Sequence record: OL631484.1
Origin: Escherichia phage ECML-606-1
Length of the DNA stretch: 64,000 nucleotides
Strand: one strand, 5' to 3'
How positions within the stretch are numbered: the stretch's first letter is position 1; each line of letters starts with the position of its first letter. A program made the position numbers and the translations under genes. The notes under the pieces were generated by a model. It saw only the letters and a program-made list of their open reading frames with translations. It did no database searches and was not told the origin of the DNA. Shown here piece by piece: positions 46,959 through 53,732 of the stretch.

Positions 46959-49900
46959 TTATACGCTCGGCAGGATGATACATTCCACAACGGTCATGCC
47001 GCTGCCGCCAAAGCCATCGGCGTCCTTAGTCCCCGATTCGTTCACCTTAGTGATGAGTAGGCGGGTATTAGGTGGCAGGATAATTTCTTTTTCCCCGGTA
47101 TGGTGCGAGATAGATCCACCACTCGGAAGCGAGCCAGCGCCCGCATAGATACCTTTTACGCCGGGGCCTGCTGTCATTTTGAGGTGAATATTACCACTCC
47201 ACACGTCTGGACTGATAGACGTGGACATAATTGCAGGCTCCATGATGACCTTGCCGACCGACGCTTTCAGCTTGGAGAGATCACCGCTGCCCAGACTGAA
47301 TTTGCGCCCGAACGTGGTACCCGGCGAAATTTCATGGCCCATACCAGACAGCGCCTGCGCTGCTGCTTTCGCTTCTGCGCTTGGGTTGCCCTTCCACAGT
47401 CCGCTGTTCATCTGCTTATAACTGCTACCAGTATACGCCTGCACGGCCTGCTTTTGTGTCATCGGCAGCTTTTCCCACACTTCCTGTGCTGCTTTGGCAT
47501 AAGTGTTTGTGGTCAGCGTGCCAGCCTTGAAAGTGGTTTTAGTAATGCCAAGGTCTTCCGGCTCAACAATCCCCGGATGGCCCAGCACCAGCAGGTTCCC
47601 GATCTTGTCTGCATCGTTACCGCTCCAGTTTTCCGGCTTGTATTCTTCGTGCATCGAATACAGCGGGTGATCGCCGCCGATACGGAACTGCTCGGCTTCA
47701 TGCCCGGTAAGCTGGCTCTTAATCTCGTTAATCGCCTGCATCGCGTAGCCTTTGATGTGCTGCGATGGGTGATCGAGCACTGGCACCTGTCCGGTAACAG
47801 CTCCGGTGTCTTTGTCAAAGGTTGGCGCGGTCAGGCCGCGAATGGCTTCCGGGTCTCCGGTCAGCGCCGCAGAATAAATGGCCTGCGCCGCGTCGTGGTT
47901 CCCTTTGTTCAGGAACTCTTTGGAGGACGGGCCGGATTTGCCAACGCCAGACCAGTTGAGGAAGTCAGGCGGGGTACTGATTTTCTCCGGCTTGAATTTC
48001 TGCATTTTGATGATCTGCTCGGCTTCCGGGTACTTCTCAGCCAGATACTCTTTGCGCTTGATGAGCGTTTCCACCAGCTCTTTTTTGGCCTTCTCATCGC
48101 CCGGCCCATACTGGTTGACCATGTGCGCGATTTTGGCGTCGGAGATAGCCAGCACCTTGGAGACAGACGCGGCGATATCGGCCTCAGTCATGCCACCGAA
48201 GACGGCGGCGCTGTTCGCGTTCATCTTCGGATCCATCAGTGACTCCAGCTCCTTAACTACCGGGCCAAATTCTTTCTTCGCACCCTGCGCACGGAACATC
48301 AGCGAGCCGCCCGCATCGACGCGGTGAATGGTGCCGTCATCTTTCAGCTGCACGTTGTCTTTCGCCAGCCCCACGACATCCCAGTTACCCAGCCACGCAT
48401 CAACGGCAAAGCCTTCCAGCATACCCTTGGCCTTCGCCAGCGCTGCATGGGTTTTGGCCTTCTTGATGTTCTCCCACTTCGAGGCAATAGCCATTTTCCC
48501 GTCCTTGGTGACGATCATGGCGTCCTGCGCGGACAGGCCAGCGGCGCTATACAGTTTCGCTGCCAGCACCTCAGCCTTGGCGTGCTCCTCGTTATCCGGG
48601 AACTTCACATACCATTCCTGCCCATCGGCGTCCTTCATTTTCATGCCTTCATTCGAACCGCCTTGGTTGCCCCCGGTCACTGTCCACTCATCGACGCTGA
48701 TCGGCTCTTTCTTCTTCCACTGGTACTTTTTGACCTCCATCGGGCCATCAGCGGCAAGGCCATTCTCTGCCGGGTTGCTGGTCGCGGCGGTAGCATTCAT
48801 CAGCTGCGCGACGCCATTCATAGCATAGGTGCCATTCACCTCAGGGTTATAACCGGACTTAACCTTGATCCCATTAGCCATCAGCATCATCGACGCATAT
48901 TGCGCCAGCGCCTTTTTACCCGGCGCGGTCGGGCCATACTCCGTTGAGACCTTAATTTTCATCCCAAACTCGCCATAAATCAGCATCGAACCATCGGCTT
49001 TCTGCATGATGACGCCTTTGGTGCCGCCGCCTTTGGTCAGCTTGGCTTTGAGGTTATCTACATATTTCATGTAGTGATCCTGCTGCCAAGCGCTCAGGCC
49101 AAGCGCAGCGAAGTCAGGTGCTGGGATCTCGTCAGGATTGGCCCTAACCCAGCGCCCGTTTTTCAGGATCAGCATCCCATTGGCACCCGGCTTCATGTCG
49201 CCTTCTTTCGGGCCATCGCCTTCTTTCTGGCCCTCGTCGGCTTTCTTAGCATCTTCTTCGGCTACGGTGTTTTTGATAGCCGTCAGGATCCCTTCGATAG
49301 CCACAGGAGTAAAGTCGTTGATGATAAGCACGCTCTTAATGGTGCTGACCGCATCCACTTTGTCCGGGTTGGCGTCGTAGTATTCCTTGCACGCCACCGA
49401 CGCCTTGACGACCTTTTGCAGCCCGGTTTTGGTCTCCGCGATGCTCTTGATGTCGTCCAGCAGTTTCAGGTCGATATTACCCAGCTCCGGCGCGGCAGGT
49501 TCAGGCGCAGGCGCAGGCTCCTCAGCTCCGGTGATCTGATCCTGTACAAAGGTCATGGTGCTGATCGCGTAATCCGTCATGCTCATCTTGACCACATCGG
49601 TGCCCTGATTCGCCATCAGCGCATACGCGGACTCTTTGACGCTGTTCAGCACGGCCTCTTTCATTTCCGGCGAGTCGGTGTACTTCGCCAGCATCGCCAT
49701 CGCTGCCAGACCATCCAGCGCATCTGCATCCGCCATGCTATCGCCCTTGTAACTGGCTTTCGGGATCCCCTGCGGGACGCCGTGCATGTTGATGCTGTCT
49801 TTCAGTATGGACTGGAGGACAGGGATATGGGCCACGTTATCGCCTGCGGCCTTCACGATGTCCTGATAGGTGGCAGGGTTGTCGCCTTTCTTCGCCACGT

Positions 49901-52900: not shown

Positions 52901-53732
52901 CAGGTGTTGAGGCTTTCTGGACTTCTTCTTTAGCTGCGTTTTTTTTCTCAGGTGAAGGAGACGGCCCATCTTTTGGCATAATAAGGCTTAGTTTTTTTGC
53001 TCCACCCGGTTCAGTTTTAAAGTATCCAAACTGCGTACCGTAATTCTCAATCGCGTGCAGCTGGTGCTGTTTTAAATCACCAATCTCAATAGTGATGACG
53101 TTATTTTTTACTTTGTATGCTTCAATCGGTGGCAGACCTAGGTAACTCTCAATTCCAGAAACAATGGCTTGTTGTTTGGCTGTCAAATTACCTGTAGCTG
53201 GTTTTGTTGCTGCCTTTGCCTCTTGCGCTACGGCTTCAATGGCCTGCTCAGCCATCTGATCGACGGTCTCAGGCTCTCTCTCGTATGTGGCGATGGCAGG
53301 GTGCTCACCCGCTTTCTGGCCCGCGCTGACCTTCTCCTGCGAGCCCATTTGCTCCAGCAGATAGTTGGCAATCGCCACCAGCTTTTTACCGTGGGTGTTC
53401 ACGCCATAGGATGATCCCAGAATCGCCGCGATATCGCCGTTGGCAGCGTGCTGCAACAGGTTCGGGACGTGTTTCTGGTTGAAATGCTTAATGTCTTTGT
53501 TGGTCGCCTCTTTCTCAGCAGGATAGAGCAGCTGGCTCGACTCCTCCTTAGGCATGGCGTAAGGCTTATGGCCTTTGCCACCAGCTTTAGGGTGCGCGGC
53601 TTTCGGGGCGTTCTTGACGCCCTTCATGTCCGGCGTGGTTTTCTTCCAGCGCCCATTGATCAGAGCATAGCCCGCTTGGTGGGCGAATTTTTGATTAAGT
53701 GCTTTTGCGAGGACAAGCATGGTGGCCACCAT
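46959..53732 (-). CDS. giant (2257 aa) multidomain protein with C-terminal ADP-ribosyltransferase-like domain (putative ejected virion effector)
   Basis: Single uninterrupted ORF; C-terminal 160 aa carry R (FGRKF), STSIS and E-K-E in the order and spacing of R-S-E mono-ADP-ribosyltransferases; three internal KEGD.K.G..G..VF.NGRW repeats; kinase-like motif block; preceded by conserved GTCGTGATG motif. Confidence 0.65.
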   Translation of the reverse strand: MVATMLVLAKALNQKFAHQAGYALINGRWKKTTPDMKGVKNAPKAAHPKAGGKGHKPYAMPKEESSQLLYPAEKEATNKDIKHFNQKHVPNLLQHAANGDIAAILGSSYGVNTHGKKLVAIANYLLEQMGSQEKVSAGQKAGEHPAIATYEREPETVDQMAEQAIEAVAQEAKAATKPATGNLTAKQQAIVSGIESYLGLPPIEAYKVKNNVITIEIGDLKQHQLHAIENYGTQFGYFKTEPGGAKKLSLIMPKDGPSPSPEKKNAAKEEVQKASTPAAEAPKPGEIVMPKFESGKNSTGVRTAYEAQAQKVIDATSLAELEAIKSKAKSWKGITPNSKKLLNLYGQKLALLTGENPNKPLVQSEEPSPLSAVEIIATSPAQPDTAEGKPAPKASVSKKAMDAIDWSQFAVAENIKNAKSYNAQIAAIKAAGEVGNINGILAMTYGKNTYGLKVAKAANNALAALGYPDIKVVIGKDAVHPMLGQFSQAEKDQKASAEVEQQKTVRAEEGPQEGDTRMGKNGMQVFKDGRWHNQETGEPLKDQPVAGEFKKGQKLSISDMPNLPAGSIIQTYDKDGKPYLKVLMGHATAWPISKKGEPLAKPFQAGQYLKLIGFGGNTKTPDNLGYISDYHHSEYPTELVELGKPNHLTQKQQNVIKNMWNGVLSTTPDAGVYPTNTSAVIVADPKNPGSGMWVNEKGDWGHISGFSNTQNEVYQQVMAGKEPAVNLAESLGLAAAPKPEGVKTFSNPPQTGDAFIDGICEDIQNDLNAGNWALAVDNINDMVTVIRDDQNLIDAFQKVDLSAWIIEAVTAAKKELGDISVKSLPTPPQIKQERAPTPEPQLPDFADVAEFNEWAKTKGEAFIEQASTYYGSDLAFSESSVGKLYDSWAEKSQAAAKSEQIATKHERKQEKKAILNDYAMWESAFDALTDAKDEKQADAIAGDWMTANGHDAPQLVVLAEAMKDNGFNELANEFFIAGKKAYGKWWSETYGTEPEKPLVSPTSDTVKTYGTKVQTLYNVIAEEVHKGKESDPDVIAKHFNELSELHLSEPAAVQVKLYQQEVNKWLVEDGPKEGDTKQGKGGILVFHNGHWILQQDMPETSANGSAGSEIVALKQALAGANGDDATSIGLEFIKDNHGDKGAYTTVIDNILKMNSGHVYAASEIGQAYFKKHGKPLNLPIKPDVGFYSTEATDFQGYAIAATLAKDENSKKLLIEAMKYEQNVTPSTTINGTKYKEYMAEVLDKLTAAPGKPKNMYDLGLVFNNAKDNLETLMAVQDYVAKKGDNPATYQDIVKAAGDNVAHIPVLQSILKDSINMHGVPQGIPKASYKGDSMADADALDGLAAMAMLAKYTDSPEMKEAVLNSVKESAYALMANQGTDVVKMSMTDYAISTMTFVQDQITGAEEPAPAPEPAAPELGNIDLKLLDDIKSIAETKTGLQKVVKASVACKEYYDANPDKVDAVSTIKSVLIINDFTPVAIEGILTAIKNTVAEEDAKKADEGQKEGDGPKEGDMKPGANGMLILKNGRWVRANPDEIPAPDFAALGLSAWQQDHYMKYVDNLKAKLTKGGGTKGVIMQKADGSMLIYGEFGMKIKVSTEYGPTAPGKKALAQYASMMLMANGIKVKSGYNPEVNGTYAMNGVAQLMNATAATSNPAENGLAADGPMEVKKYQWKKKEPISVDEWTVTGGNQGGSNEGMKMKDADGQEWYVKFPDNEEHAKAEVLAAKLYSAAGLSAQDAMIVTKDGKMAIASKWENIKKAKTHAALAKAKGMLEGFAVDAWLGNWDVVGLAKDNVQLKDDGTIHRVDAGGSLMFRAQGAKKEFGPVVKELESLMDPKMNANSAAVFGGMTEADIAASVSKVLAISDAKIAHMVNQYGPGDEKAKKELVETLIKRKEYLAEKYPEAEQIIKMQKFKPEKISTPPDFLNWSGVGKSGPSSKEFLNKGNHDAAQAIYSAALTGDPEAIRGLTAPTFDKDTGAVTGQVPVLDHPSQHIKGYAMQAINEIKSQLTGHEAEQFRIGGDHPLYSMHEEYKPENWSGNDADKIGNLLVLGHPGIVEPEDLGITKTTFKAGTLTTNTYAKAAQEVWEKLPMTQKQAVQAYTGSSYKQMNSGLWKGNPSAEAKAAAQALSGMGHEISPGTTFGRKFSLGSGDLSKLKASVGKVIMEPAIMSTSISPDVWSGNIHLKMTAGPGVKGIYAGAGSLPSGGSISHHTGEKEIILPPNTRLLITKVNESGTKDADGFGGSGMTVVECIILPSV

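Follow-up and report, generated by a model that had tools for sequence, protein, structure and literature searches.

A 6.8-kb gene of Escherichia phage ECML-606-1, situated beside the virion genes, raises the question of what its giant product does for the phage and in which cell it acts. The window analysed, 64,000 nucleotides of sequence record OL631484.1, shares 99% identity with Enterobacter phage phiT5282EW, which is related to the Mecenats66/Dolphis-type myoviruses, a lineage with hosts in Enterobacter, Yersinia, Morganella and Pseudomonas, in which no sign of a temperate lifestyle was found. The gene is real and encodes a giant phage protein, since its reading frame is uninterrupted over 2257 codons counted from the first ATG and the product, for which 99 homologs were collected, is 99% identical to phiT5282EW_00045. 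In a near-identical GenBank record the second ATG, with GGTGG 5 nt upstream, is taken as the start, giving 2253 residues. The single intact frame and its position next to the virion module, both part of the original prediction, are thus borne out: the gene borders the module on its upstream side, and is followed in the order of transcription by a 160-aa ORF, a Nudix gene, a 142-aa ORF, an 84-aa ORF and the genes for the tail fibre, large terminase and portal (Table 1).

Table 1. Features of the giant gene, its product and the neighbouring genes (positions in the window).
Feature	Position	Strand	Remarks
Shared late-gene motif GTCGTGATGCCACA	53752..53765	-	14 nt; 20-32 nt upstream of the giant ORF start codons
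Giant ORF	46959..53732	-	2257 aa (first ATG) or 2253 aa (ATG at 53720); stop codon included
N-terminal leader	53625..53720	-	aa 5-36, LxLKA...GYxLxNGRWKK; kept at the N termini of most family members
Conserved N-terminal domain	53283..53720	-	aa 5-150; partial repeat at about aa 385-480
Junction motif 1, EEGPQEGDTRMGKNGMQVFKDGRWH	52137..52211	-	aa 508-532
Junction motif 2, EDGPKEGDTKQGKGGILVFHNGHWI	50457..50531	-	aa 1068-1092
Junction motif 3, GDGPKEGDMKPGANGMLILKNGRWV	49146..49220	-	aa 1505-1529; start point of many homology blocks
HipA/CtkA-like atypical kinase domain	48018..48710	-	aa 1675-1905; invariant K1710, E1721, N1783, D1785, N1793, D1806
Conserved intermediate region	47508..48017	-	aa 1906-2075; PPxFxNW..GKxGPSS and HPSQH motifs (alignment A2)
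R-S-E mono-ADP-ribosyltransferase (ART) domain	46962..47507	-	aa 2076-2257
Catalytic Arg2143 codon (FGRKF)	47304..47306	-	invariant in A2; in a predicted strand
S2170-T2171-S2172 codons (STS motif)	47217..47225	-	T and S nearly invariant in A2; aligned to SpvB/Vis STS
E2214-K-E2216 codons (ExE motif)	47085..47093	-	both Glu invariant in A2; aligned to SpvB E-A-E
160-aa ORF	46467..46949	-	9 nt downstream of the giant gene
287-aa Nudix hydrolase	45611..46474	-	PF00293, 47.3 bits (cut-off 21.1)
142-aa ORF	45121..45549	-	syntenic; identity 58% in fHe-Yen8-01, 38% in Dolphis
84-aa strongly hydrophobic ORF	44867..45121	-	last gene before the terminator-like hairpin
Terminator-like hairpin	44840..44859	-	closes the giant-gene operon, ahead of the tail fibre gene

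The presence of a late-gene motif before the ORF, as had been claimed, is confirmed by its distribution. The sequence GTCGTGAYGNCRNA occurs in six exact copies (0.02 expected), every one on the gene (minus) strand. Besides the copy at the giant gene, copies lie upstream of the holin gene, a baseplate wedge gene, an operon ending in the tail sheath gene and the head protease gene, and one lies within the gene upstream of the major capsid gene, while the remaining 35 kb of the phage genome contain no copy. The 14-nt motif is therefore confined to the region of head, tail and lysis genes, a distribution that suggests a late promoter.

At the C-terminus, an R-S-E mono-ADP-ribosyltransferase core had been predicted at 46962-47450; the domain stands, and its extent is refined to the approximate limits given in Table 1. 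Pfam PF03496 (ADPrib_exo_Tox) matches aa 2152-2233 with 36.3 bits (gathering cut-off 23.4 bits), and the motifs FGRKF (aa 2141-2145), STSIS (aa 2170-2174) and GEKEI (aa 2213-2217) each occur once, in the expected order and inside the last 117 residues. In alignment A2 (18 sequences, 24-61% identity) the Arg and both Glu residues are invariant and the Thr and Ser are at least 90% conserved, and the HMMER alignment places the STS and ExE motifs in register with the catalytic motifs of SpvB and Vis. The comparison with ART folds, which had been proposed as a check, used a confident predicted model and returned C3, Certhrax, VIP2, SpvB and HopU1. In this model the triad would lie on strands β1, β2 and the start of β5, and superposition together with the strand positions suggests that R, S and E cluster in space. 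Further matches of the model are many phage ARTs, among them fusions with MuF, portal and Alt proteins, with Alt proteins ranking well below other phage ARTs in a BFVD search; a match to PHROG 802 (E 3.8e-7) covers only profile positions 407-513 of 674 (107/674). Judged by its sequence and predicted fold, and in line with orthologs annotated as ART, the C-terminal domain is a genuine cholera/C3-type R-S-E mono-ART, and its E-x-E motif, in place of Q-x-E, makes arginine the likely acceptor.

Further upstream in the protein lies a second enzymatic domain, of the HipA/CtkA-like atypical kinase type, which the original prediction had overlooked. Its ATP-binding Lys and Glu and its catalytic Asp, Asn and Asp are conserved, as expected of a kinase fold. 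Pfam HipA_C (PF07804) gives no match in the giant protein and weak matches in four of 19 family members (best E 2.4e-4), and the only relative above the HipA_C cut-off carries five copies (summed score 67.5 vs. 30.5). The domain recurs in over 6000 clusters, and in the giant protein it is invisible to Pfam-A. The closest folds include the lipid kinases PI4K2A and MavQ, so that the domain counts as a putative protein kinase. Between the two enzymes lies the conserved intermediate region, modelled as a small α/β unit followed by a lower-confidence linker and showing no structural match of its own.

The N-terminal domain (aa 5-150), which has no match in Pfam or PHROG, is covered by 76-87 of the 99 homologs. 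Its leader is resembled by the start of the neighbouring Nudix protein. A conserved 25-aa motif, present at the N-terminus and at module junctions, and the Nudix gene, which is fused into distant homologs, were both passed over in the first reading of this DNA. In the giant homologs P0090, P0093 and P0094 the N-terminal part shares 52% identity with the Nudix protein, whose gene keeps its position in three phage genera, with orthologs in Yersinia phage fHe-Yen8-01 (noted as particle associated) and in Dolphis. By these homologies, the Nudix protein is a split-off module of the giant protein's system. No family match was obtained for the 142-aa ORF or for the 160-aa ORF, which could be a partner, chaperone or inhibitor of the giant protein; the latter has an ortholog of 56% identity in fHe-Yen8-01, noted as “particle associated protein,” and a gene of similar size takes its position in Dolphis.

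Whether these proteins travel in the particle is addressed most directly by the record of fHe-Yen8-01 (OR620963). Its giant ortholog (52% identity), also annotated as “toxin,” is described by the depositors as a “phage particle associated protein,” and the two genes downstream bear the same note. Furthermore, the distant relative P0102 combines a MuF head-packaging domain, followed by two kinase domains and an ART, and is encoded beside a capsid gene, and MuF is likewise present in other relatives of the kinase domain. Together with the motif common to structural and lysis genes, the ortholog note and the MuF-fused P0102 indirectly support the earlier proposal of a host-modifying virion protein. 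We consider it probable that the giant protein, from a Mecenats66/Dolphis-type myovirus, is expressed late, associates with the virion and acts as an effector with several enzymatic activities. Transcription of its gene would start from the phage-specific motif found also at head, tail and lysis genes, and the protein of about 250 kDa would be packed into the particle along with the 160-aa and Nudix proteins, as the Yersinia phage orthologs suggest; the N-terminal “LKA..GY..NGRWK” leader may, speculatively, serve as an incorporation tag. If T4 Alt and the MuF toxins are a guide, the proteins would be injected alongside the DNA at infection. There the C3/VIP2-type C-terminal domain would mono-ADP-ribosylate host proteins in an NAD+-dependent manner, the HipA/CtkA-like domain would phosphorylate host targets, as T7 gp0.7 and HipA do, and the Nudix partner would hydrolyse ADP-ribose or NAD-derived nucleotides, with early host takeover or neutralisation of defences as the combined outcome.

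A more far-reaching version, which we regard as tentative and rather doubtful, holds that the kinase-like domain, the R-S-E ART and the Nudix enzyme form a conserved, co-delivered three-enzyme cartridge that is fused or split depending on the phage, that the hairpin of about 25 aa (GPKEGDTK..G..LVF.NGRWHK) is a new tag, and that the kinase-like domain represents a large family of phage-injected kinases. The hairpin stands at the N-terminus of the giant and Nudix proteins and at every cassette junction, and would act in virion incorporation or as a boundary mark for processing or recombination.

It is unlikely that the protein, made late, is not injected at all and acts in the producing cell in the manner of T4 ModA/ModB, its particle association being adventitious. 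The fHe-Yen8-01 record, for which no paper was found, gives the same particle label to a DNA methyltransferase and to the large terminase, indicating that the particle preparation may have been unclean, and Pfam shows in the giant protein neither a MuF nor a portal nor a peptidase domain to account for packaging or processing. However, the kinase and ART pair is fused to MuF in the relative from a head module, the location just upstream of structural genes follows the pattern of packaged ARTs (PMC9503650), and 250 kDa would be a costly carrier for two small enzymes acting only in the cytoplasm.

Less likely still is a primarily structural or ejection protein, a component of the head, core or trans-envelope conduit comparable to T7 gp16 or an N4-type giant, with the enzymes as accessory cargo. 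Such a role would suit a very large protein encoded in the late region, the three repeats of the junction motif and the roughly 1500 residues (aa 150-1670) in which Pfam and PHROG reveal no enzymatic signature. By contrast, the kinase, the ART and the N-terminal 150 aa are the parts best conserved across the family, while the middle cassettes are freely swapped, and tblastn found no match in the related phage PHB04 (PMC9503643), so that not every member of the lineage needs the protein as a structural component. Very improbable, finally, is a polymorphic toxin or virulence moron directed at competing bacteria or eukaryotic cells with the 160-aa ORF as its immunity protein: the nearest solved structures are toxins with eukaryotic targets, a small ORF follows closely downstream, as in MuF toxins (PMC5576092), and an ortholog is annotated as a toxin, but no trafficking or secretion domain (Rhs, PAAR, T5SS-T7SS, MuF) was found with Pfam, NCBIfam or PHROG, 17 of 18 homologs examined end in the R-S-E ART, including tails that at first seemed different (only P0092 differs, ending in an LPD1 domain), variation lies in the N-terminal and middle cassettes, the family extends to phages of soil Pseudomonas and Gordonia and not of pathogens alone, and the ortholog of the putative immunity protein is itself noted as particle associated. 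The suggestion of a polymorphic-toxin-like effector in the original prediction is therefore not upheld.

The preferred reading, a virion-delivered effector, places the protein among several known systems. T4 Alt carries an R-S-E ART of the Alt/VIP2 family, is packaged in the head, is injected and ADP-ribosylates the α subunit of RNA polymerase. The giant protein shares with it the R-S-E ART, reflected in an Alt-like PHROG match and in T4-type Alt proteins among the structural matches, as well as a late gene (by its motif) and an ortholog noted as particle associated; it differs in being about three times as long as the matched Alt-type proteins (624-647 aa) and in adding the kinase-like domain and about 1500 aa of unassigned cassettes. 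With the polyvalent proteins (Iyer et al., 2017, PMC5512222) it has in common a giant size, at least two unrelated enzymatic domains, here kinase-like and ART in one phage protein of 2257 aa, and a predicted delivery with the DNA, and its homologs carry the polyvalent domains ART-PolyVal, InPase, LPD1, GNAT and MuF (PF18760, PF18823, PF18796, GNAT, PF04233). However, its ART is of the R-S-E and not the typical H-Y-D type (Tox-ART-HYD2), and neither an MPTase peptidase nor ART-PolyVal was matched in it at E up to 1; H-Y-D ARTs and MPTases are frequent, not obligatory, in this class. The kinase described for the polyvalent proteins, from Verrucomicrobia and Bacteroidetes, lacks a C-terminal subdomain (PMC5512222), whereas the giant protein has a HipA/CtkA-like kinase whose C-terminal part is helical. 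The MuF polymorphic toxins, which include the ART-bearing EFV toxin (Jamet et al., 2017, PMC5576092), likewise have a C-terminal ART on a protein linked to phage morphogenesis, a small downstream ORF and proposed injection with the DNA, and P0102 itself joins MuF, two kinase domains and an ART; the giant protein has no MuF domain, and its C-terminal domain type is constant, not polymorphic.

C3, Certhrax, VIP2, SpvB and Vis (PF03496) are secreted toxins with eukaryotic targets; the giant protein belongs to the late proteins of a phage and lacks a secretion module, and its ART is only 21-26% identical to theirs. Set beside the HipA/CtkA family, for which T7 gp0.7 would be a functional analogue, its kinase falls below the Pfam HipA_C cut-off and sits in giant proteins, not in toxin-antitoxin pairs; PI4K2A, MavQ and CotH score nearly as high against it.

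The giant protein thus probably belongs to a known kind, the virion-delivered phage ARTs and polyvalent effectors, and the general concept of virion-packaged ARTs and polyvalent proteins is published (PMC5512222; PMC9503650; PMC5576092), with orthologs already annotated as ADP-ribosyltransferases. New here are the unannotated kinase family, the fusion evidence tying the Nudix protein to the system and the junction/leader motif, and the protein is a clean example of two covalent-modification enzymes, an ART and a kinase, paired with a Nudix partner. For phage therapy, a “toxin” annotation on a virion-borne protein merits functional attention. Phage proteins injected with the DNA act ahead of any phage gene expression, which would make them leading candidates for taking over the host and disarming bacterial immunity.

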